Positions 2,220-12,572 of a stretch of DNA of 64,000 nt are shown piece by piece. Positions within the stretch are counted from its first letter, which is position 1; every line of letters begins with the position of its first letter. Below the pieces are notes generated by a model, which saw only the letters and a program-made list of their open reading frames with translations, did not search any database and was not told the DNA's origin. The translations under genes and the position numbers were made by a program. This DNA is from an uncultured Pelagibacteraceae bacterium. Its GTDB lineage: Bacteria > Pseudomonadota > Alphaproteobacteria > Pelagibacterales > AG-422-B15. The stretch spans positions 82,706-146,705 of the forward strand of contig CACNCV010000001.1 in assembly GCA_902619105.1 (NCBI GenBank), read 5' to 3'.

Positions 2220-3236
2220 ATGAAAGCAATTGTTTGTAAAGAATTTGGCCCTCCAAGCTCGCTTGTTTATGAGGATGTTGAATTACCTGAACTTAAAAAA
2301 AGTCAAATTCAGATAGATGTGCATTCTGCTGGAGTCAATTTTCCAGACACTTTAATTATTCAAGATAAATATCAAGTTAAACCCCCTCTTCCTTTTTCAC
2401 CAGGCGGTGAAATCTCAGGAGTCATTAGTGCGACAGGTGAAAGCGTTTCTGATTGGAAGGTTGGTGATGAGGTCGTTGCTATGATAGGCTTTGGTGGTTT
2501 TAGGGAACAAGTAATAACGAGTCCATCCAATATATTTCGAAAACCAAGTAGTATGGATTTTACCACCGCCTCTTGTTTTACATTAACTTACGGCACATCA
2601 CACTACGCTCTTAAAAATCGCGGTCAACTTAAGGAGGGTGAAAATTTACTTGTCCTAGGGGCTGCAGGTGGTGTTGGTATATCAGCTGTTGAAATTGGAA
2701 AAGCAATGGGTGCCAGAGTTATTGCCGGTGCATCTTCTGATGAAAAACTAGAAGTATGCAAAGAGTATGGAGCTGACGAAGTTATTAATTATGGAAAGTA
2801 TGATTTAACCAATAGAGATCATGTGAAAGAATTTAGAGCAGAAATTTCAAAAGCAACAGGTGGTAAAGGACCAGATGTAATCTATGACCCAGTTGGAGCA
2901 GATTTCACTGAGCCCGCTTTACGAAGCATTGCATGGAATGGACGCTTCTTAGTTATAGGTTGGGCGGCTGGTTATATTCCAAAAATACCAATGAATTTGT
3001 ATTTAATTAAAGGTTGTTCCGCTGTTGGTGTATTTTGGGGTCAATTTACAGCTTTAGAACCACAGGAGCATCTTGCCAACATGAACCAACTTACTGGTTG
3101 GTATGAAGAGGGAAAATTAAAAGCCCCAGTAACTGAAGTATTGCCGCTTGAAAAGGGTCAACAGGCTTTGGAGACAATTCTAGCCCGTAAGGCTACTGGA
3201 AAAATAGCACTAACAACATCTTTTTATAAATCATAG
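2220..3236 (+). CDS. NADPH:quinone oxidoreductase family (zeta-crystallin-like MDR)
   Basis: GVNFPD, PFSPGGE and LVLGAAGGVG nucleotide-binding motifs; no zinc-ligand Cys cluster. Confidence 0.9.
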   Translation: MKAIVCKEFGPPSSLVYEDVELPELKKSQIQIDVHSAGVNFPDTLIIQDKYQVKPPLPFSPGGEISGVISATGESVSDWKVGDEVVAMIGFGGFREQVITSPSNIFRKPSSMDFTTASCFTLTYGTSHYALKNRGQLKEGENLLVLGAAGGVGISAVEIGKAMGARVIAGASSDEKLEVCKEYGADEVINYGKYDLTNRDHVKEFRAEISKATGGKGPDVIYDPVGADFTEPALRSIAWNGRFLVIGWAAGYIPKIPMNLYLIKGCSAVGVFWGQFTALEPQEHLANMNQLTGWYEEGKLKAPVTEVLPLEKGQQALETILARKATGKIALTTSFYKS

Positions 3237-3266: not shown

Positions 3267-6200
3267 ATGACACATCAAAATAATTATAAAATAAGCAAAA
3301 TTATATTTTTCTCATTTTTATTTATTTTTTTATTTCTTATTTCTAGTGCAAATGCAGCTGACAGGTTTTGGGTTGCTAGTGGGAGTGGAGATAAGATTTG
3401 GTGGGATAATAATAACTGGTCCAATCAATCGGGGGGTACCCCAGGGGCAAACCCACCGTCAAATTCCGATAAAGCCTATTTTGATGCCAATAGCACACTG
3501 GATGTTAACGTAACCACTAATGTCACAGTTAACAAATTAATTATGCGAGGTGGATACACTGGTACAATGAATATCAATATACCGAGTGGACAATTCACAG
3601 CTAAACAAGGGGTTACTCACAGTGGGGGGCATATAATAGTTTCAGATGGACTATTTAAACTTGGAAAAAAACAATATACCTTAGGTGCTGGCGGCAATAA
3701 TCCTACACTCACTTTTACAGGTAGTACTAGTACATTCAGATTAGATCACAATTTTGTAATGTATAACGGATCTACATTTACTGCTCCTGGAGCTGGTGCC
3801 TCTCGTTTTATTTTAAAAGGTGGCTTTCGACTTATGGGGGGAACATTTAATCATAATAACGGCACACTAAGGATGAACCCTAGATACGATGGTCCGGGTG
3901 AAAGTGCTTTAGGTGCAGGAATTACAATCTCTGGTGGTCCTGGTCCTAATAAAAATTTTTATAATTTAACTAAAGGCAATAATAAAAACGTAACTCTTTA
4001 CACCGATATTGAAGTAGAAAATAAATTACAGGTTGTTGGAACAGGAAGGCTCAGGGCTAATGGCCACGATATAACCGTTGGTGGTGATTGGGATATGCAA
4101 AATAGCACAAATTTTGTACCAAGTACTGGACAAGTTATTTTTAATGGATCCTCAGCGCAAACTATTGATATGCCAGATAATTTTAGCAATTTAACTATAG
4201 CCAATACTGCTGGGGTTGTATCGCTAACAGGAAACAGTCAATTAAGAGTTAGTGGAACACTTACCATAAACAATGAAGCTAATTTTGATATTAACGGTAA
4301 AAATTTAAGAAAAAATGCATCAACTACTAACCCAGTTACGCTTGTCAATAACGGTAACTTGCAACTTCAAGGAAATGAAACCGTTTATATTACACCAGAC
4401 ACTGATAGTGGAACTGTAACCTATGATGGTTCCGGGGCTACTGGCTTAGCAGCGGGTAACAGTTATTTTAATTTAGTTTTTAATCAATCAGGTACATCGA
4501 CACTTGATGCTAATTTAGATGTTAATGGCGACCTCACCATAACAAGTGGAACATTAGATGCGAGCACTAGTAACCATGATATTGCTGTGGGAGGCGACTG
4601 GACAAATAATGGTAGTTTTATATCTCGCTCAGGAACAGTAACTTTTGATAATAATTCAAATGTATTTTCTGGAGGCACTGGCGCAAGTAATGATTTTAAT
4701 GATGTTGTTTTAAGTGGTTCAGCAGGCAGCCAATCAGATAATATGAAAGTTAATGGAGATTTTACTATATCTTCTTCTGGTACTTGGTCAACGAACTGTA
4801 ACACACTCACAGTTGATGGAAATCAGGATGCAGGAATTGGTACAATAGCAAACTCGCTCACTCCGGATGTTGACTCATTTATCCCAGCGAATGGAAACTC
4901 AACACATGCTGCAGGAGATAATATAACAATTAATTTTAATACAGGATTAAGAAAAGCTAGTGACGATAGCGACTTAACTAATTCTAATATCGATGCCCAT
5001 ATTACACTAAAAGATACAAACTCAAGTGGAGCAGATATTTCTTTTGATGCAACAATTGATGCTTCTGATCAAGTCGTAACTATTAATCCTGACGCTAATT
5101 TTAACAGCTCTCAAGTTGTGTATGTTGCTGTTACTGATAACACTCTTGAAAACGCTTGCAATACAGCTTTGCCTGCCCACTCTGCAACATTTACAGTAGC
5201 TGATACTGAAGGTCCTACATTAAGTTCATCGAACCCTGCTGATGGGGCTACGACTATGGGAGTCAATTCAAATATAGTACTCACATTTAATGAATCTGTA
5301 ACTGCTATCGCAAATAAAAATATTACAATTTATTCAGGAGAAACTCTAATTGAAACTATTGAGGCAACAGACTCAAAAGTAACAGGTTCTGGATCATCAG
5401 AAATTACAATTAATCCTGCTACTACTTTAGATGAAAAAACTGATTATTATATTAAAATTGATTCAGGGTCATTTGAAGATAGTTCAGGCAATCTTTATAC
5501 CGGAATAACAAACGTTACTGACTTAAATTTTACAACTGCTGATACGACAGCCCCTGTTGTAACGATCACTCCATCAAACGGCCAAACAGGAATTGGAATG
5601 GACACCAACATTACGATCGAATTTGATGAAGCAATTAGAAAATCTGATGATAGTGAAATAACTGATACAAGCGTGGATGATCACATCATTCTCAAAGAAA
5701 CAGATTCTAGTGGAGCAAATATTTCTTTTGATGCAACAATTAATACCGCTAAAACAATCATAACGATTGATCCAACAAGTGATTTTTCAAGTTCACAAAC
5801 AATATATGCAGCCATTAAAGCCGAAGTTGAAGATTCTTCAGATAACACAATAAGTCTATCTGAAACATCATTTACAACTGCTACACCCACTAATCCTCCA
5901 ACAGTTTCTATAAGCGCTGAAGCAGGCGTTCCTGTGAATACTAATATTACAATTGAATTCGACAAATCAGTCAGGTTGCTAAGTGATGAGGAATTATTAG
6001 ATACCAATGTTGGCAGCTTAATATCTCTTAAAGATACGGATGTTAATGGTAATAATATTAGCTTTGTTGCAACAGTTAACTCCGCTAAAACAAAAATCAC
6101 CATCAATCCAGTAGGTAATTTTACAAGTGGGCAAACAATTTACGCTGCAATTGGAGCAACCGTTGAAGATTTTTTCGACAACGCTATTAGTGCTGCATCA

Positions 6201-9185
6201 GCAACATTTACGGTTGCAGACAATCTACCACCTACATATGTATTTAACCCTCCAGATACTGAAATAAATGTTGCAGTAAGTTCAAATCTGACAATTACTT
6301 TTAATGAAGCTGTAAGAAATATTAATGATACAGCTTTAACCGATAGCAATGTGGACAGTTTAATAACATTAAAAGATACCGACGCAAATGGATCGAATAT
6401 TGCATTTAACGCAACAATTGATGCAGATAAGAAAATTATAACAATAAACCCAACTAGTAATTTTTCTAGTGAGCAAGAAGTCTATTTAGCAATCGGTGCA
6501 ACAGTTGAAGATTCTTCAGATAATGCAATAACTTCGGGAAGTTCATCATTCACGGCAGTTGATTCAAATCCTCCTGATGTGGAATTCTTTCCAACCAACT
6601 CATCAACTGGTGTAGCAGTTAACTCTGATGTGACCATTTCTTTTTCTGAACCTATTAGAAACACAGACGATACACCCGTTACCGACTCAAATGTTGATGC
6701 TTTAATCACATTGAAACAAACTAATTCTTCTGGGTCGGATATATCATTCTCAGCTGTTATTGACGATGCAAAACAAATGATAACAATTACCCCATCAAGT
6801 GAGTTTTCAAGTGAGCAAGTTGTCTATGTGGCAATCGGTACAACTGTTGAGGATGAATGGGATAATGCAATAAGTGCGTCTTCGTCGACATTTACTACGG
6901 CAGATGCAACTGCACCAAGTGTAAACTTTGATCCTGAGGATACCGCAACTGGAATTCCCATTGAATCTAATGTTACACTTACATTTTCTGAAGCTATTAG
7001 AAACGTCGATGATACGGCTATTACAAATTCTAATGTTGGTGACTTAATTACTCTTGAATATGCATATGACGGTATACCTGTTGCTTTTTCAGCCACTATT
7101 GATGCGACAAAAAAAGTAATCACTATTAATCCTGATAGTGATTTTATAAGTGGTGAAGTTGTATTTGTGTCAATTGAGTCTGTAGAAGATAATTCAGGAA
7201 ATGCAATGAGTTCCACATCTGGTACCTTCAGTGTTACGGATGTCACTCCTCCAGTTGTTGCCTTCAGCCCTGCAAACTTAGCAACCAATGTATCTGTTGA
7301 TACAGACATTTTCATACTATTTGATGAAGAAATAAGGCTTATTGATAACTCCGATATAAATAATATCAATGTTGATAATCTCATAACTCTAAAAGATACT
7401 AATTCTAGCGGAGCCGACATATCTTTTGATGCAACGATTAATGCCAATAACAAACTAATAACAATCGATCTAACGAACGATTTATCTAGTGAGCAGATTG
7501 TATATGTTGGTATTGGTTCAACAGTTGAAGATTCTTATGATAATGCCATCTCAAATTCTTTTGCAATATTTACGGTAGGAGATTCTCTTCCTCCTACGGT
7601 AAGTATTGATGCTGTTATTACCGCCTCTATTGCTACCAATTCTGATATTACATTTACATTTAGTGAGCCTGTTCGAAATCTTGATGACTCTGAAATAACT
7701 AATTTAAACGTTGGAAGCTTAATTGCTCTTAAAGATACCGATGCCAATGGTACAGATCTTTCATTTACCGCTTCAATAAATTCAGCTAAGACTGTAATTA
7801 CGATTGATCCAACAAATAATTTTACAAGTGGTCAAATAATTTATGCCGCTATTGGTGCAACAGTAGAAGATTTTAATAATAACGTTATACCCGCCACTAG
7901 CAAAACTTTTACAGCAGAGTACTTAGTTGAGGATTTAACAAATCCCATGAGTGATAAGGATTTTGTTGGACTTCTGAAAGCTCAAGCTGAAACAGCAAAA
8001 AGATTTATTCAACAAACTACTTCTTCAATATTTAAACGTATAGAGTGGTTAAGAAGAAACAAAGATAAAAGTGAGTTATCCCATCAGGGTGTAAGTGTTA
8101 ATTTTAGTAACTCAGATCTGAATGGAATTTCAAACGCACTGCAATTTTCAAAACTCGTTAATCAATCTGGAGATTTATTTTCAAACAATTGGTCCGTATG
8201 GAGTGAAGGAAATATTTCCGTCGGTGAGATTGACTCTGATGGTATTTCTTCACTTAGAGACATTACAACAAACGGCATAACTCTTGGAATAGACAATAAA
8301 ATTGATGATAATCATATTTTGGGGGCTGCATTAAGAATCGGCAAAGATGATGTTAATGTTGGATCCTCAGGCCATTCTTTGGATACTAATGCATACAGCT
8401 TATCGTTTTACGCTACTGCGCCACACACTGATCAAACATATATTGATATAAATGTTGGGCTTGGATTATTAGAAATGGATCTTATTCGATCTCACGCATC
8501 TGGAACTATATTAGGTAATAGAGATGGAAAGCAATTGTATGGCTCTATAGTTTATAGTGCAGAGCTTGAGAAAAATGATATTAATTTATCGCCTTATGGC
8601 AGAATTGATGGAGGTTATACTAAGTTATCCAGCTTTAGCGAAAAAGGAACAATTGCTGCCTTAAGATATGACGAACAAACAATTAAAACAGCCATTATCT
8701 CTCTTGGAATATTAGCTGACGACGAAATAAAATTTAATGACTTAAATCTTAACACATACGGTCGACTTGAATACGGAAGAGATGTCAGCTCTTCTTCAAA
8801 TGCCAGTGTTTCTTACATAGCCTTGCCTAATACAATTTATTCTCTCAAGGTTGAAGATGAGAAATCTAGTAATATTAGAGCTGCACTTGGAACAGATATA
8901 GAAACCCCGAGCGAATGGTTTTATCAATTAGATTATGAGCTTAACTACAGACCAGGTTCTTCACAAATGAATAGCTTTAGCGTTTCGGCTTCTTACGAGC
9001 TAGATTTAGAAAGTATGATAAACCTATCTTTAAATAGTGAGCCATCGTCATATTCAACAGCAAGAATTGAGCTTGATTCAAGATTGATGAATGGATGGTT
9101 TTTAAATGGATCTTACGAATTCATAGATCGTTATGATCTAAGTAATGAAAATTCAATAAGTCTAAAAGCTGTAAGATATTTTTAA
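3267..9185 (+). CDS. Large secreted autotransporter-type surface protein: signal peptide, beta-rich N-terminal passenger, nine Ig-like (Big_5/SbsA-like) repeats, C-terminal outer-membrane beta-barrel
   Basis: Signal peptide ends ANA-A. About 113-aa repeats carry P.....I.I.F.E.(I/V)R and ITLKDT..G..ISF.ATI. An amphipathic helix (NPMSDKDFVGLLKAQ...) precedes alternating beta-strands that end in Phe. Confidence 0.88.
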   Translation: MTHQNNYKISKIIFFSFLFIFLFLISSANAADRFWVASGSGDKIWWDNNNWSNQSGGTPGANPPSNSDKAYFDANSTLDVNVTTNVTVNKLIMRGGYTGTMNINIPSGQFTAKQGVTHSGGHIIVSDGLFKLGKKQYTLGAGGNNPTLTFTGSTSTFRLDHNFVMYNGSTFTAPGAGASRFILKGGFRLMGGTFNHNNGTLRMNPRYDGPGESALGAGITISGGPGPNKNFYNLTKGNNKNVTLYTDIEVENKLQVVGTGRLRANGHDITVGGDWDMQNSTNFVPSTGQVIFNGSSAQTIDMPDNFSNLTIANTAGVVSLTGNSQLRVSGTLTINNEANFDINGKNLRKNASTTNPVTLVNNGNLQLQGNETVYITPDTDSGTVTYDGSGATGLAAGNSYFNLVFNQSGTSTLDANLDVNGDLTITSGTLDASTSNHDIAVGGDWTNNGSFISRSGTVTFDNNSNVFSGGTGASNDFNDVVLSGSAGSQSDNMKVNGDFTISSSGTWSTNCNTLTVDGNQDAGIGTIANSLTPDVDSFIPANGNSTHAAGDNITINFNTGLRKASDDSDLTNSNIDAHITLKDTNSSGADISFDATIDASDQVVTINPDANFNSSQVVYVAVTDNTLENACNTALPAHSATFTVADTEGPTLSSSNPADGATTMGVNSNIVLTFNESVTAIANKNITIYSGETLIETIEATDSKVTGSGSSEITINPATTLDEKTDYYIKIDSGSFEDSSGNLYTGITNVTDLNFTTADTTAPVVTITPSNGQTGIGMDTNITIEFDEAIRKSDDSEITDTSVDDHIILKETDSSGANISFDATINTAKTIITIDPTSDFSSSQTIYAAIKAEVEDSSDNTISLSETSFTTATPTNPPTVSISAEAGVPVNTNITIEFDKSVRLLSDEELLDTNVGSLISLKDTDVNGNNISFVATVNSAKTKITINPVGNFTSGQTIYAAIGATVEDFFDNAISAASATFTVADNLPPTYVFNPPDTEINVAVSSNLTITFNEAVRNINDTALTDSNVDSLITLKDTDANGSNIAFNATIDADKKIITINPTSNFSSEQEVYLAIGATVEDSSDNAITSGSSSFTAVDSNPPDVEFFPTNSSTGVAVNSDVTISFSEPIRNTDDTPVTDSNVDALITLKQTNSSGSDISFSAVIDDAKQMITITPSSEFSSEQVVYVAIGTTVEDEWDNAISASSSTFTTADATAPSVNFDPEDTATGIPIESNVTLTFSEAIRNVDDTAITNSNVGDLITLEYAYDGIPVAFSATIDATKKVITINPDSDFISGEVVFVSIESVEDNSGNAMSSTSGTFSVTDVTPPVVAFSPANLATNVSVDTDIFILFDEEIRLIDNSDINNINVDNLITLKDTNSSGADISFDATINANNKLITIDLTNDLSSEQIVYVGIGSTVEDSYDNAISNSFAIFTVGDSLPPTVSIDAVITASIATNSDITFTFSEPVRNLDDSEITNLNVGSLIALKDTDANGTDLSFTASINSAKTVITIDPTNNFTSGQIIYAAIGATVEDFNNNVIPATSKTFTAEYLVEDLTNPMSDKDFVGLLKAQAETAKRFIQQTTSSIFKRIEWLRRNKDKSELSHQGVSVNFSNSDLNGISNALQFSKLVNQSGDLFSNNWSVWSEGNISVGEIDSDGISSLRDITTNGITLGIDNKIDDNHILGAALRIGKDDVNVGSSGHSLDTNAYSLSFYATAPHTDQTYIDINVGLGLLEMDLIRSHASGTILGNRDGKQLYGSIVYSAELEKNDINLSPYGRIDGGYTKLSSFSEKGTIAALRYDEQTIKTAIISLGILADDEIKFNDLNLNTYGRLEYGRDVSSSSNASVSYIALPNTIYSLKVEDEKSSNIRAALGTDIETPSEWFYQLDYELNYRPGSSQMNSFSVSASYELDLESMINLSLNSEPSSYSTARIELDSRLMNGWFLNGSYEFIDRYDLSNENSISLKAVRYF
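4855..7920 (+). repeat. Nine tandem diverged Ig-like domain repeats of about 340 nt each inside the autotransporter
   Basis: Nine units counted in the translation, each ending in (F)T(V/T/A)xD-like sequence. DNA motifs such as ctaaaagatac...gatatttcttttgatgcaacaatt recur. Confidence 0.85.
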
Positions 9186-9206: not shown

Positions 9207-9491
9207 TTACTGTTTTTGATTCATTTCTCTGGCCATATCTAAGTCCAGATTTGTCACTCCACCAGCATCATGAGTTGATAAAGTAACTTCGACCGTACTG
9301 TAGACATTAAACCATTCTGGATGATGATCTTTTTTTTCTGCATAGATTGCCATTGATGTCATCCAACCAAAAGCTTCTTGAAAGTTACTAAACTTAAAAG
9401 TTTTTGTAATAGCACTTCGCCCTTTGACCATCTTCCAACCAGACAATCTTTTTAATTTTTTAGTAAGTTCAGCTTTAGATATTTTTTTCAT
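9207..9491 (-). CDS. phhB: Pterin-4-alpha-carbinolamine dehydratase
   Basis: DHHPEWFNVY and LSTHDAGGVT.LD motifs. Confidence 0.93.
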   Translation of the reverse strand: MKKISKAELTKKLKRLSGWKMVKGRSAITKTFKFSNFQEAFGWMTSMAIYAEKKDHHPEWFNVYSTVEVTLSTHDAGGVTNLDLDMAREMNQKQ

Positions 9492-10546
9492 TATGGTGCG
9501 GGATTTGGAATTTCTTTATGAATACTTCTTATCTCATTCATAATTTCTTTTGTAATATCAAGATCAACACTGTCTATACAGGTTTTTAATTGTTCCATTG
9601 TAGTCGCTCCAATAATTGTTGATGTGACAAATGGTTGAATGTTACAAAATTGAATAGCTAGTTGAGCAGGGTCAACTTCGTATTTTTTTGCAAGATTTAC
9701 ATACATTTCAATTGCCTGCTGTGTCTTATCTCCTTTATATCTCATCATTAAAGGACCATCGCCAAATAATGCAAGTCTCGAGCCTTGAGGCATCTGTCCA
9801 CCTAAATATTTTCCAGTTAATGTTCCTTGTGCTAAAGGCGAGTAAGCTAGCAAGCCCACTTGTTCGTGCATTGCAACCTCAGATAAACCAATTTCAAAAC
9901 CTCTATTAACCAAATTATAAGCATTCTGAATCGAGGCAACACGTGGAAGAGACTTTGTTTCAGCGAGCTCTAAATATTTCATAGTTCCCCACGGTGTTTC
10001 GTTAGATAAGCCAATCTGCCTGACTTTGCCCTGCTTGACTAATTCGCCAAGAGCCTCAAGAGTTTCCTCTAATGGAATTGAGTCAGATGAGTCCATATGT
10101 TTGTACTCAAGCCTTCCTGAAAATGCACCAAAAGGCCTATCAGGCCAATGAACTTGGTATAAATCAATGTAATCTGTTTGCAGTCTTTTGAGACTTTGCT
10201 CAACTGCATAGAAAACATGTTCTTTGGACAAACGAGGTATTTCCTCATTTTCTCTAAGCCACGACATTCCAGAACGACCAGCAACTTTAGTTGCAAGAAC
10301 AACCTTATCTCTGTTGCCTCTCGCTTTGAACCAAGTTCCAATATATTTTTCAGTTAAACCCTGAGTTTCAGCTTTTGTGGGAACAGCATAAATCTCAGCA
10401 GTATCGATAAAATTAACTTCGTGGTCTAAGGAGTAATCCAACTGATCGTGAGCATCAGCTTCAGTATTCTGTTCTCCCCAGGTCATTGTACCCAAGCATA
10501 TCAAGCTTACGTCAATATCTGATCTACCTAATTTTCTGTATTCCAT
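9491..10546 (-). CDS. NADP(H)-dependent aldo/keto reductase, Tas-like
   Basis: LGTMTWGEQN, FIDTAEIY, DLYQVHWP, IGLSNET and YSPLAQG.LTGKY motifs. Confidence 0.92.
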   Translation of the reverse strand: MEYRKLGRSDIDVSLICLGTMTWGEQNTEADAHDQLDYSLDHEVNFIDTAEIYAVPTKAETQGLTEKYIGTWFKARGNRDKVVLATKVAGRSGMSWLRENEEIPRLSKEHVFYAVEQSLKRLQTDYIDLYQVHWPDRPFGAFSGRLEYKHMDSSDSIPLEETLEALGELVKQGKVRQIGLSNETPWGTMKYLELAETKSLPRVASIQNAYNLVNRGFEIGLSEVAMHEQVGLLAYSPLAQGTLTGKYLGGQMPQGSRLALFGDGPLMMRYKGDKTQQAIEMYVNLAKKYEVDPAQLAIQFCNIQPFVTSTIIGATTMEQLKTCIDSVDLDITKEIMNEIRSIHKEIPNPAP

Positions 10547-11556
10547 TATTTTGTAATAAGTCCAAGTTCTTCAAATTGTTTTACAGTTTGAATAATTGCC
10601 TCATCAGCACTTTCAAAATTAAATTTTAAAATATTTTTAGCGTTTTCGGAATTAGTAAATTTTGTTTTACCAACAAAGCCCGATATTGCTCCAGCTTCTT
10701 TGCTAAATAAGCCAAGAAATTTCATTAAAATATTTGGAGCCTCGATTGAGGGGGCTTTTTTATAGCCATGTTCTCTTAAAAGCTTATTCATGTCAGATAG
10801 CCACATACACTTTTCAGCGAGTATGAATCTTTTTCCATTTGCATCTGGATGTATCATTGCTTCAACATGTGCTCTTGCCGTATCTTTAACAGTAACCCAT
10901 CCAAAATGAACTTTTGGCACAACGGGATAAGAGCCGTCCAACATTCTCAGAATAAAAACATTTGAAGTTCCAACATCATCAGATAACGATGGGCCTACAA
11001 CTAAAGTAGGGTTTATTGCAACGGCTTCTATTTTTTCATCGTCACTAAGACTGTTCAGGTAAGACCACATCTCTTTTTCAGCAATTGCCTTACTCTTGTT
11101 GTATGCGCCAATATTCTGACTTGGATCAGTCCAATGACTCTCATCATATATTTTTTCTTCATTCCCATAGCCCACAGCTGAGAACGATGAAGTCATAACA
11201 AATCTTTTAATCTTGTTCTTTATCGAGCTTTTAAGCGCCCTTAAAAGACCTTCCTTAGCCGGCTGAATGATCTCATTTTCATCATCAGGTGCCTTGTCGG
11301 TCAGTGGAGATGCAACGTGCAATACATATGTACAGCCAGCAACCGCCTCATCCCATCCTTCATCCTTTAGCAGGTCTAATTTACAAAACTCTAAATTATT
11401 CTTTGCATCAACTTCTTTTGCTATTGCCTGCCTTACTTCTGCTTCACGATTTTCAGAACGTAATGATGTTTTAACTGAGTATCCTTTTTTGAGTAATTCA
11501 GCTATACAATGCTGAGCAATGTAACCTGATCCTCCCGTAACTAAAACTTTTTCCAT
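10546..11556 (-). CDS. Extended SDR, NAD(P)-dependent aldehyde reductase / DFR-like (paralog 2)
   Basis: VLVTGGSGYIA, HVASP and YNKSK (YxxxK) motifs. Confidence 0.88.
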   Translation of the reverse strand: MEKVLVTGGSGYIAQHCIAELLKKGYSVKTSLRSENREAEVRQAIAKEVDAKNNLEFCKLDLLKDEGWDEAVAGCTYVLHVASPLTDKAPDDENEIIQPAKEGLLRALKSSIKNKIKRFVMTSSFSAVGYGNEEKIYDESHWTDPSQNIGAYNKSKAIAEKEMWSYLNSLSDDEKIEAVAINPTLVVGPSLSDDVGTSNVFILRMLDGSYPVVPKVHFGWVTVKDTARAHVEAMIHPDANGKRFILAEKCMWLSDMNKLLREHGYKKAPSIEAPNILMKFLGLFSKEAGAISGFVGKTKFTNSENAKNILKFNFESADEAIIQTVKQFEELGLITK

Positions 11557-11564
11557 ATATTATT

Positions 11565-12572
11565 CTACTTTTTAAGTATCTTACCCATGGATAGTGCCAT
11601 GTCACTTATTGTTTTTTCAACTGGTGTAGGTTCCCAATTAAAAATAGAAACTGTTGAGCTGTTATCAGTTTTATAACTACCTCTTCTGATATTTTTTAAA
11701 ATACCTTTCATTTGTAAATTGAACAATGCAAAAACTCTTAATAAAAAGGTTGGCATAACTTTAGTTGAAACTTTTTCAAAGCCACTATCTTTCACAATCT
11801 TTGCAATTTTTGTAATATGATAATCATTTGTTGAAGTTGTGAGTATTCTTTTACCATCGCTGGCTTCTGATTTAAGAGCTTTCACATGCAACATAGCTGT
11901 ATCTCTTACATCAGATATATGCATATATACATCTGGTAACGCAGGAATTTTTCCAAGTATCAGTCGAGCCATAAAACTAGCAGACGCACCCATGGTATCA
12001 TTACTTAATAGTGGACCCATGACAAAACCTGGATGAATAGTTGTCATTTTCAGATCTTTGTTTTCTGGTAAATTTATAAATTCCCATGCAGCTTTTTCAG
12101 CTAAAGTTTTACTTTTATTATATGCGCCGACGTCTTTATCTGCGTTGGTCCAATCATGACTGCTACAAATTTTTTGATTATGTCCGTAGGCAATAGCAAC
12201 AATTGACGACGTAAGAACAACTTTTTTTATACCAGCTTTCTTTGCAGCTTTAAGAGCTCGCATCGTTCCTTCTGTGGCTGGCTTTATGAGCTCATTTTCA
12301 TTTTTTGGTTCTCCAACAATAAAAGGCGAAGCTAAATGCATCATATAATCACAATCAGACGCACAACTGTCCCAACCTTCATCAGACATTAGATCAAGTT
12401 TACAAAATTCTAAATTATTATCTGGTATTTCCTTTTTTACTGCTTCTCGTACTTCATTTTCTCTATTCATATTTCGTAGAGAACCTTTAACAGCATATCC
12501 ATTTTTCAATAATTCACTAATACAGTGAAGTGCTATGTAACCTGATGCTCCTGTGACTAAAACCTTCTCCAC
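11565..12572 (-). CDS. Extended SDR, NAD(P)-dependent aldehyde reductase / DFR-like (paralog 1)
   Basis: GTG start; VLVTGASGYIA, HLASP and YNKSK motifs. Confidence 0.88.
   Translation of the reverse strand: MEKVLVTGASGYIALHCISELLKNGYAVKGSLRNMNRENEVREAVKKEIPDNNLEFCKLDLMSDEGWDSCASDCDYMMHLASPFIVGEPKNENELIKPATEGTMRALKAAKKAGIKKVVLTSSIVAIAYGHNQKICSSHDWTNADKDVGAYNKSKTLAEKAAWEFINLPENKDLKMTTIHPGFVMGPLLSNDTMGASASFMARLILGKIPALPDVYMHISDVRDTAMLHVKALKSEASDGKRILTTSTNDYHITKIAKIVKDSGFEKVSTKVMPTFLLRVFALFNLQMKGILKNIRRGSYKTDNSSTVSIFNWEPTPVEKTISDMALSMGKILKK

Follow-up and report, generated by a model that had tools for sequence, protein, structure and literature searches.

The 64,000-nucleotide stretch of an uncultured Pelagibacteraceae genome considered here (assembly GCA_902619105.1, contig CACNCV010000001.1, positions 82,706 to 146,705 of the forward strand; referred to as the window) contains a gene whose product is a type Va (classical) autotransporter. 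Its barrel domain continues for 60 residues after the canonical 12-stranded barrel. Judged by sequence comparison, this extension sits past the C-terminus of every solved autotransporter barrel, is conserved and ordered, and marks a large marine family instead of being a peculiarity of one gene. Its origin as an ancient double-hairpin duplication of strands 9-12 is well supported by profile comparisons. That all four extra strands lie in the membrane wall, giving a 16-stranded barrel, is in our view an even bet.

The protein has the order of the classical type Va proteins, i.e., signal peptide, passenger, helical linker and C-terminal PF03797 barrel in a single polypeptide. The type Va trait that is absent is an end of the protein at strand 12 with an aromatic beta-signal residue; here, L1912 is followed by the 60 additional residues. 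The relevant parts of the gene are as follows, in window coordinates and amino acid (aa) positions; AF2 denotes AlphaFold2 models.

3267..9185, plus strand: whole autotransporter gene, 1972 aa plus stop (open reading frame (ORF) calling and Pfam)
7956..8057, plus strand: long linker alpha-helix, aa 1564-1597, 34 residues, predicted local distance difference test (pLDDT) about 94 (AF2; conserved in the classical relatives, class B below, too)
8076..8183, plus strand: low-confidence segment adjoining strand 1, aa 1604-1639 (AF2), where class B has a 50-60-aa canonical alpha-linker
8190..8999, plus strand: canonical autotransporter barrel, strands 1-12, aa 1642-1911 (Pfam, TIGR01414, AF2, Foldseek, EstA alignment)
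8823..9002, plus strand: putative source copy of the duplication, strands 9-12, aa 1853-1912, ending ...SASYEL (profile comparison)
9003..9182, plus strand: 60-aa extension, aa 1913-1972, putative second copy of the double hairpin (homologue and profile comparison)
9015..9038, plus strand: extension strand 13, aa 1917-1924 (AF2, family alignment)
9051..9083, plus strand: extension strand 14, aa 1929-1939 (AF2, family alignment)
9096..9131, plus strand: extension strand 15, aa 1944-1955, with W1944 first, in a column that is 80% aromatic (AF2, family alignment)
9147..9182, plus strand: extension strand 16, terminal ...AVRYF, with a Phe invariant in the aligned column, the presumed relocated beta-signal (AF2, family alignment)

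The end of the canonical barrel

Several comparisons place the end of the canonical barrel at about aa 1907-1912. The Pfam family PF03797 spans aa 1644-1890, corresponding to positions 1-254 of the 255 in the model (E 3e-34, 119-124 bits, cut-off 26), and the last model positions of TIGR01414 (427 of 432) fall at about aa 1907 (42 bits, cut-off 16). A phmmer search of the fragment against PDB sequences gave no match, and in a profile search of PDB sequences with the barrel family EstA was the sole match among barrels. In the alignment of the family profile with the sequence of the solved 12-stranded EstA, EstA is exhausted at about profile position 633 of 689. The terminal ...L-x-F of class B aligns with Y1910-E-L1912 of the query, and the DSSP assignment of the AF2 model also ends canonical strand 12 at aa 1911.

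The original prediction, made from the DNA sequence alone, had counted 12 canonical strands ending at aa 1911/1912 (nucleotide (nt) 9002), followed by 60 further residues with the terminal Phe in the second copy only. The 73 classical homologues described below agree with this position, as do all the comparisons above, and the ORF (3267..9185) continues through aa 1913-1972 with L1912 at the first end and F1972 at the second.

A family of extended barrels

A phmmer search with aa 1551-1972 against 1.8 billion representative sequences gave 2405 hits, of which the best 150 were re-aligned locally. Among the 141 of these whose alignment reaches the canonical barrel end, the number of residues past the position of aa 1911 is bimodal: 0-9 in 73, 50-64 in 65 and about 30 in one, the remaining 2 being fragments or fusions. 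Extended sequences are referred to as class A, defined by 50-64 residues past the canonical end, the pattern ...[YF]-x-[PS]-(5 residues)-[YF]... at the turn between strands 12 and 13, and a terminal Phe. The query fits this definition with 61 residues, Y1910 and F1972, is 31-98% identical to the members, and deviates at the aromatic column 1918, where it has Ile. Genomes were also scanned, one per species, using 11 close sequences as query. This gave 234 relatives, and every complete ORF among the best 80 loci, which were inspected, has a tail of 50-64 residues and a terminal Phe. The tail is thus not the unconserved appendage that the original prediction had allowed for. A second, word-indexed homologue search with a profile added little new diversity.

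The classical relatives, class B (e.g. P0065, P0071, P0077), resemble the query in a homologous upstream helix, a barrel that is about 30% identical, and a YER..D(S/T) motif in strands 11-12. However, their terminal ...L-x-F falls at the position of aa 1912, and they have a 50-60-aa helical insert before strand 1. In class B (P0061-P0151) the canonical linker motif of this insert, AINEAARLRED.IGSLNP, immediately precedes strand 1, while class A has about 40 poorly predicted residues in place of the insert; the upstream helix, aa 1564-1597, is present in both classes. As class A is without the canonical linker insert, the occupant of its pore would be non-canonical as well. A circular permutation, in which the insert of class B would hold the extra strands before strand 1, was considered and rejected, since the class B inserts are helical, with the canonical alpha-linker motif in them.

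The best 80 loci are mostly from Pelagibacteraceae single-cell genomes, some with two tandem copies. Tandem pairs of extended-barrel autotransporter genes on the same strand are found at two loci (L022 and L023, in the Pelagibacteraceae single-cell genomes AG-435-N15 and AG-410-P11). The nearest relatives outside SAR11 (loci L009-L017) are 40-49% identical over the C-terminal domain, the closest 44-49%. Their hosts are Thioglobus, Pseudothioglobus and Piscirickettsiaceae among the Gammaproteobacteria, Rhodospirillaceae and Paracoccaceae among the Alphaproteobacteria, and a metagenome-assembled genome labelled Binatia. These non-SAR11 relatives suggest horizontal spread of the extended barrel among marine plankton.

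The passengers vary among class A, being Big_5 repeats or SGL/YVTN-propeller-like domains, and the extended barrel is constant; by these domain matches, the extended barrel is combined with unrelated passengers. The commonest SAR11 members, of about 700 aa (P0215, P0227, P0228, P0240-P0243 and locus L053), carry SGL/lactonase-type or YVTN beta-propeller passenger signatures and no immunoglobulin (Ig) repeats. The propeller-passenger members match PF08450 and PF10282, and by profile the surface-layer protein 1L0Q (E 7e-15).

The sole intermediate is P0012, a metagenomic representative of 611 aa with about 30 residues after the canonical end (...KWSLSLNNN LKSNENDFNLYYNSSF) and a terminal Phe. 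It may be a 14-stranded variant.

Origin of the extension

The two segments that the original prediction had aligned without gaps are aa 1884-1912 (nt 8916-9002) and aa 1944-1972 (nt 9096-9182). The alignment is indeed gapless, with 10 of 29 residues identical and a BLOSUM62 score of 32. The maximum obtained from shuffled sequences is 27.4 +/- 4.8, i.e., the observed score is only about 1 standard deviation (SD) above it. This single-sequence repeat is too weak as stand-alone evidence, and profile comparison was used instead.

At the family level the repeat becomes significant. Using hhalign on class A, an in-register match is obtained between the last 60 columns and the 60 before them, with a probability of 85-92% and E-values of 5.7e-6 to 7e-7; the profile of aa 1913-1972 against that of aa 1845-1912 gives E 7e-7. 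The extension also matches the four C-terminal strands in the independent profile of class B (E 1.8e-7), whereas twenty other 60-column windows of the barrel all give E > 0.005 against the extension. A repeat between the two copies was also sought at the DNA level, and none was found apart from two short chance matches. A recent duplication is therefore ruled out, and the event is old.

Double-hairpin shifts have reportedly been described in outer-membrane barrel evolution by Remmert in 2010. Double-hairpin duplication is accepted as one way in which barrels grow (Franklin et al. 2018, PMC6340704). As in the double-hairpin shifts of that study, the repeat unit here has four strands, with strands 13-16 matching 9-12 in register. 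However, in that study double-hairpin shifts are found in 8-stranded barrels only, and single-hairpin shifts in barrels of 12, 14 and 16 strands (PMC6340704). The present case further differs in being family-specific and located at the C-terminus of a 12-stranded secretion barrel, with both the ancestral (class B) and the derived (class A) form extant.

A second, stronger internal repeat is present within the canonical barrel, between aa 1761-1789 and 1815-1843 (window 8547-8795, offset 54; IVYSAELEKNDINLSPYGRIDGGYTKLSS vs ILADDEIKFNDLNLNTYGRLEYGRDVSSS). It scores 56, where shuffled sequences reach a maximum of 27 +/- 5, and corresponds to a single-hairpin shift of strands 6-7 against 8-9.

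Predicted structure

Two AF2 models were generated. In run 1, the query domain was modelled with an alignment of 66 sequences, resulting in a mean pLDDT of 81 and a predicted template modelling score (pTM) of 0.76. Strands 1-12 are long (aa 1642-1911, pLDDT 80-97) and are followed by four shorter strands at aa 1917-1924, 1929-1939, 1944-1955 and 1961-1970 with pLDDT 59-72. In run 2, a protein from Ca. Pelagibacter communis, about 38% identical, was modelled with an alignment of 96 trimmed class A sequences. The 12 + 4 pattern is seen again, with a mean pLDDT of about 81 and 62-78 in the extension. DSSP assigns 16 long strands in all in the two models. The count of 12 canonical strands in the original prediction was accordingly no miscount.

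Location of the extra strands

The sequence features of class A were studied in 103 non-redundant sequences. The difference in hydrophobicity between the two faces of the extension strands is 2.5-3.7 Kyte-Doolittle units, the strongest in the domain (strands 1-12: 0.04-3.2), and each extension strand has about four Leu/Ile/Phe/Val at lipid-facing positions, the same as strand 12. Aromatic residues are conserved at the predicted periplasmic strand ends, in columns 1910 (91%), 1918 (89%), 1944 (80%) and 1972 (Phe in 100% of the aligned sequences). A terminal Phe or Tyr is present in 61 of the 65 class A representatives, and the classical terminal Phe position, L1912 in the query, is Pro or Ser in 73 of the 103 sequences. 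The connection between strands 12 and 13 is the least variable in the domain, its length being identical in 101 of 102 sequences. Connections 13-14 and 15-16, on the extracellular side by topology, have variable lengths of 5-10 and 8-13 residues, respectively, and connection 14-15 has 6 residues in 81 sequences and 9 in 17. Such features typify transmembrane barrel strands that a tight, predicted periplasmic turn connects to strand 12. As a strand has two edges only, strand 12 cannot close on strand 1 if it is paired with strand 13.

Couplings were calculated by mean-field direct coupling analysis (DCA), where the effective number of sequences (Meff) is 77 for class A and noise peaks reach z of about 3. 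The hairpins have z-scores of 2.2-2.4 (12-13), 3.8-4.6 (13-14), 2.2-2.5 (14-15) and 4.8-5.8 (15-16). After correction for sequence separation the 12/13 turn has z 2.4, above all canonical periplasmic turns, a weak signal as noise peaks are comparable.

A proposed 16-stranded barrel and its alternatives

The original prediction had inferred a strand duplication and a non-canonical translocator, in the form of either an enlarged barrel or a separate sheet. The profile E-values uphold the duplication, and the conserved and apparently ordered extension upholds the non-canonical nature; both structural options still stand.

We suggest that the extended barrel could have arisen when the last double hairpin (strands 9-12) was duplicated in tandem in the beta-domain of an ancient ancestor. 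The copy would have persisted in the form of four short strands, strongly amphipathic and joined by tight turns of conserved length. The terminal Phe, presumably the C-terminal assembly signal, would have shifted to the new last strand, while the old last strand, now the fifth from the end, would have lost its terminal Phe, which is now Pro, Ser or Leu. In the favoured 16-stranded barrel, strands 13-16 would be in the outer membrane in one sheet with strands 1-12, closing by strand 1 to strand 16. The machinery for beta-barrel assembly (BAM) would attach to the new terminal strand, and growth of the sheet would run back through strands 15 to 1. Strand 16 would be the homologue of the partner that strand 1 had before the duplication, so that 12:13 would be the sole new interface to evolve. 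The old beta-signal could possibly act as an internal '-5' signal, as its position fifth from the end is that of the internal '-5 strand' signals documented to be recognised by BamD (Germany et al. 2024, PMC10945584). With a wider barrel another plug would be required, and the loss of the canonical alpha-linker before strand 1 in class A would fit this. P0012, whose additional residues leave room for one hairpin and end with Phe, is also counted in favour of 16 strands. That this is the first type Va autotransporter family in nature to have a 16-stranded translocator, one in which the C-terminal double hairpin was duplicated and the BAM beta-signal handed to the new last strand, the old one being kept as a '-5' internal signal, is a bolder claim, and we place it slightly short of even.

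Several observations weigh against 16 strands. The pLDDT of the extension (59-78) is clearly under that of strands 1-12 (80-98). In a Foldseek search against the PDB both AF2 models superimpose on solved 12-stranded autotransporters with a target-normalised template modelling (TM) score of 0.74-0.82 (BrkA 0.82, 3.3 A); 16-stranded barrels are absent from the top 50 matches, and the top ones are all classical autotransporter barrels. With ideal barrel geometry, the TM score against a 12-stranded barrel is 0.65-0.68 at best for a 16-stranded barrel, 0.80 for a 14-stranded and 0.96 for a 12-stranded one, and real loops push it below these values. As the observed scores exceed the bound for 16 strands, both models most probably hold a closed 12-stranded barrel, with the extra four strands placed elsewhere at modest confidence. 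At position -2, the new terminal motif frequently has Arg, Lys or Ser in place of a hydrophobic residue. DCA is without a closure signal (z -0.4 for 1-12 and -1.9 for 1-16); the class B control also fails (1-12 z 0.0), as does the pooled set (Meff 143, z -0.5), i.e., the method is uninformative at such depth. Nor is it evident that a wider pore would be sealed when the linker is shorter. No type Va barrel of more than 12 strands has been reported, the number given in reviews being 12 (PMC9289746), and extra strands in 'long-type' barrels have been suspected earlier from repeated sequence motifs alone (PMC3419190).

Alternatively, the barrel would have the classical 12 strands, with strand 1 closing on strand 12 through the retained internal motif h-x-h-x-Y1910, and the four strands would make up a small beta-sheet of their own at the mouth on the periplasmic side. 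We hold this to be possible but distinctly less probable than 16 strands in the wall. Such a sheet could be a cap, a docking site for BAM, the module for translocation and assembly (TAM) or chaperones by beta-augmentation, or a dimerisation element, and could stand in functionally for the helical insert of the classical relatives. In addition to the TM scores and the lower pLDDT of the extension, the aromatic column 1910 would keep a Phi-x-aromatic internal signal, and the neighbouring end of strand 1, on the periplasmic side, bears the 50-60-aa insert in class B but not in class A. OmpA-type barrels provide a precedent, with an internal beta-signal, residues past the last strand and a periplasmic domain; their C-terminal domain is alpha/beta and joined by a linker. 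In the extension, by contrast, the four strands form an amphipathic meander with homology to the barrel wall, and strands 12 and 13 are joined by a fixed turn of 5-7 residues and not by a linker. A soluble 40-residue sheet would be without a visible partner for its face of nearly all Leu/Ile/Phe/Val, its hydrophobic pattern exceeds that of true membrane strands, and the invariant terminal Phe and the loss of the old one would be left unexplained. AF2 may moreover echo a memorised 12-stranded fold, the alignments having just 66-96 sequences.

It is unlikely that the four strands are embedded in the membrane without a plain widening of the barrel, either in an inter-subunit barrel or sheet, e.g. 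3 x 4 as in the anchors of trimeric autotransporters, or with one hairpin in the wall (14 strands). The membrane-like amphipathicity and the terminal Phe would fit this, four strands are the share of each subunit in trimeric autotransporters (YadA is discussed in PMC6340704), a variant with about 30 additional residues is known (P0012), and the ideal TM score of 14 against 12 strands is near that observed. However, there is no match to the YadA anchor in Pfam and no coiled coil, the hairpin couplings tie 12-13, 13-14, 14-15 and 15-16 into one meander, and P0012 is a single cluster representative. Hardly credible, finally, is a chance similarity of generic amphipathic hairpins with a dispensable or disordered tail. 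The single-sequence score alone would leave room for it, but the family profiles match strands 9-12 only (E about 1e-7), the length and pattern of the tail are conserved across Alpha- and Gammaproteobacteria, and four strands are predicted in two models.

Comparison with known systems

The domain resembles the type Va beta-domains NalP (1UYN), EspP (2QOM/3SLJ), BrkA (3QQ2), EstA (3KVN), AaaA (9OQA) and Hbp (3AEH) in its end-to-end PF03797 match, in TIGR01414 and in the fold of the first 12 strands, to which the TM scores above apply. It differs from the solved type Va barrels by the four strands past their end, by the terminal Phe on strand 16 and not 12, and by the missing canonical alpha-linker motif directly before strand 1. 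The AIDA-I transport unit (4MEE) is a weaker match to the autotransporter fold (0.50-0.54). Celik et al. (2012) described internal beta-motifs and a 'long-type' group 13 of AIDA-I/Ag43 barrel domains with repeated motifs, and the beta-motif can be internal (PMC3419190). However, the extra motifs of the 'long-type' proteins are no C-terminal four-strand appendix after a complete PF03797 (PMC3419190), and the internal motif of EstA is in strand 8 of a 12-stranded barrel.

If the 16-stranded barrel is right, the strand number would equal that of type Vb FhaC/TpsB and type Vd PlpD. These are Omp85-family barrels with POTRA domains, unlike the PF03797 barrel of the query, and the Pfam scan of the whole protein gave no match to POTRA or PF01103 (Omp85/Bac_surface_Ag). 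The trimeric autotransporters (type Vc) differ too, as there is no YadA_anchor match and the extension is homologous to strands 9-12 of PF03797. In the literature on 14- or 16-stranded type Va barrels and on C-terminal extensions of autotransporters we found no description of the extended barrel. A 2025 ISME J paper on large autotransporter adhesins of coastal SAR11 shows 'a beta-barrel translocator' in its models without stating a number of strands (PMC12636525).

Gene and genomic context

The remaining features of the gene are the signal peptide and the passenger.

3267..3356, plus strand: Sec-type signal peptide, aa 1-30, ...ISSANA|AD (judged by eye from the translation)
5202..7810, plus strand: stalk of the passenger, about nine Ig-like repeats of the Big_5 type between about aa 646 and 1514, approximate ends (Pfam)

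Again by eye, the n-region of the signal peptide is basic (K8/K11), its hydrophobic core is about 15 residues long, and aa 28-31 read ANA|A. PF13205 (Big_5) matches in 9 stretches (E 2.9e-81) and PF19078 at aa 1439-1514. Over the whole protein, the Pfam families matched are Big_5, Autotransporter, CopC, Big_12 and Big_10 only. This is the only gene with PF03797 in the 1.24-Mb genome (about 34% GC). The nearest homologues bear the names Pelagibacterales or Pelagibacteraceae, which makes the organism a SAR11 bacterium.

The upstream neighbour encodes a PIG3-type quinone oxidoreductase (window 2220-3236). Downstream on the opposite strand (window 9207-12572) are genes for a pterin-4a-carbinolamine dehydratase, an aldo-keto reductase and a member of the short-chain dehydrogenase/reductase (SDR) epimerase/reductase family. 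These flanking genes are housekeeping redox genes, unlike the type IV pilus / type II secretion setting of the coastal SAR11 autotransporter adhesins (PMC12636525).

Implications

Models of type Va secretion assume a 12-stranded barrel with a narrow, helix-plugged pore, where the seam between strands 1 and 12 sets assembly by BAM and the exit of the passenger. A widespread natural family with four strands added to the wall, or with a periplasmic sheet derived from the barrel, would test these models. It raises the questions of which strand is bound by BAM, in what way the barrel is closed and the pore plugged, and whether Ig-like passengers would be exported more easily if the pore were wider. 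Barrel growth by double-hairpin duplication, otherwise inferred from deep comparisons only, would here be caught with the forms before and after the event both extant. The finding is therefore relevant for type V secretion, for BAM and for the evolution of barrels.

SAR11 is the most abundant marine heterotroph, and its surface biology is little known. The extended-barrel family is the standard autotransporter of SAR11. If the proposed 16-stranded barrel is true, the 12-stranded ancestral and the derived forms in related marine bacteria would constitute a matched pair on barrel size, passenger secretion and BAM-mediated closure.

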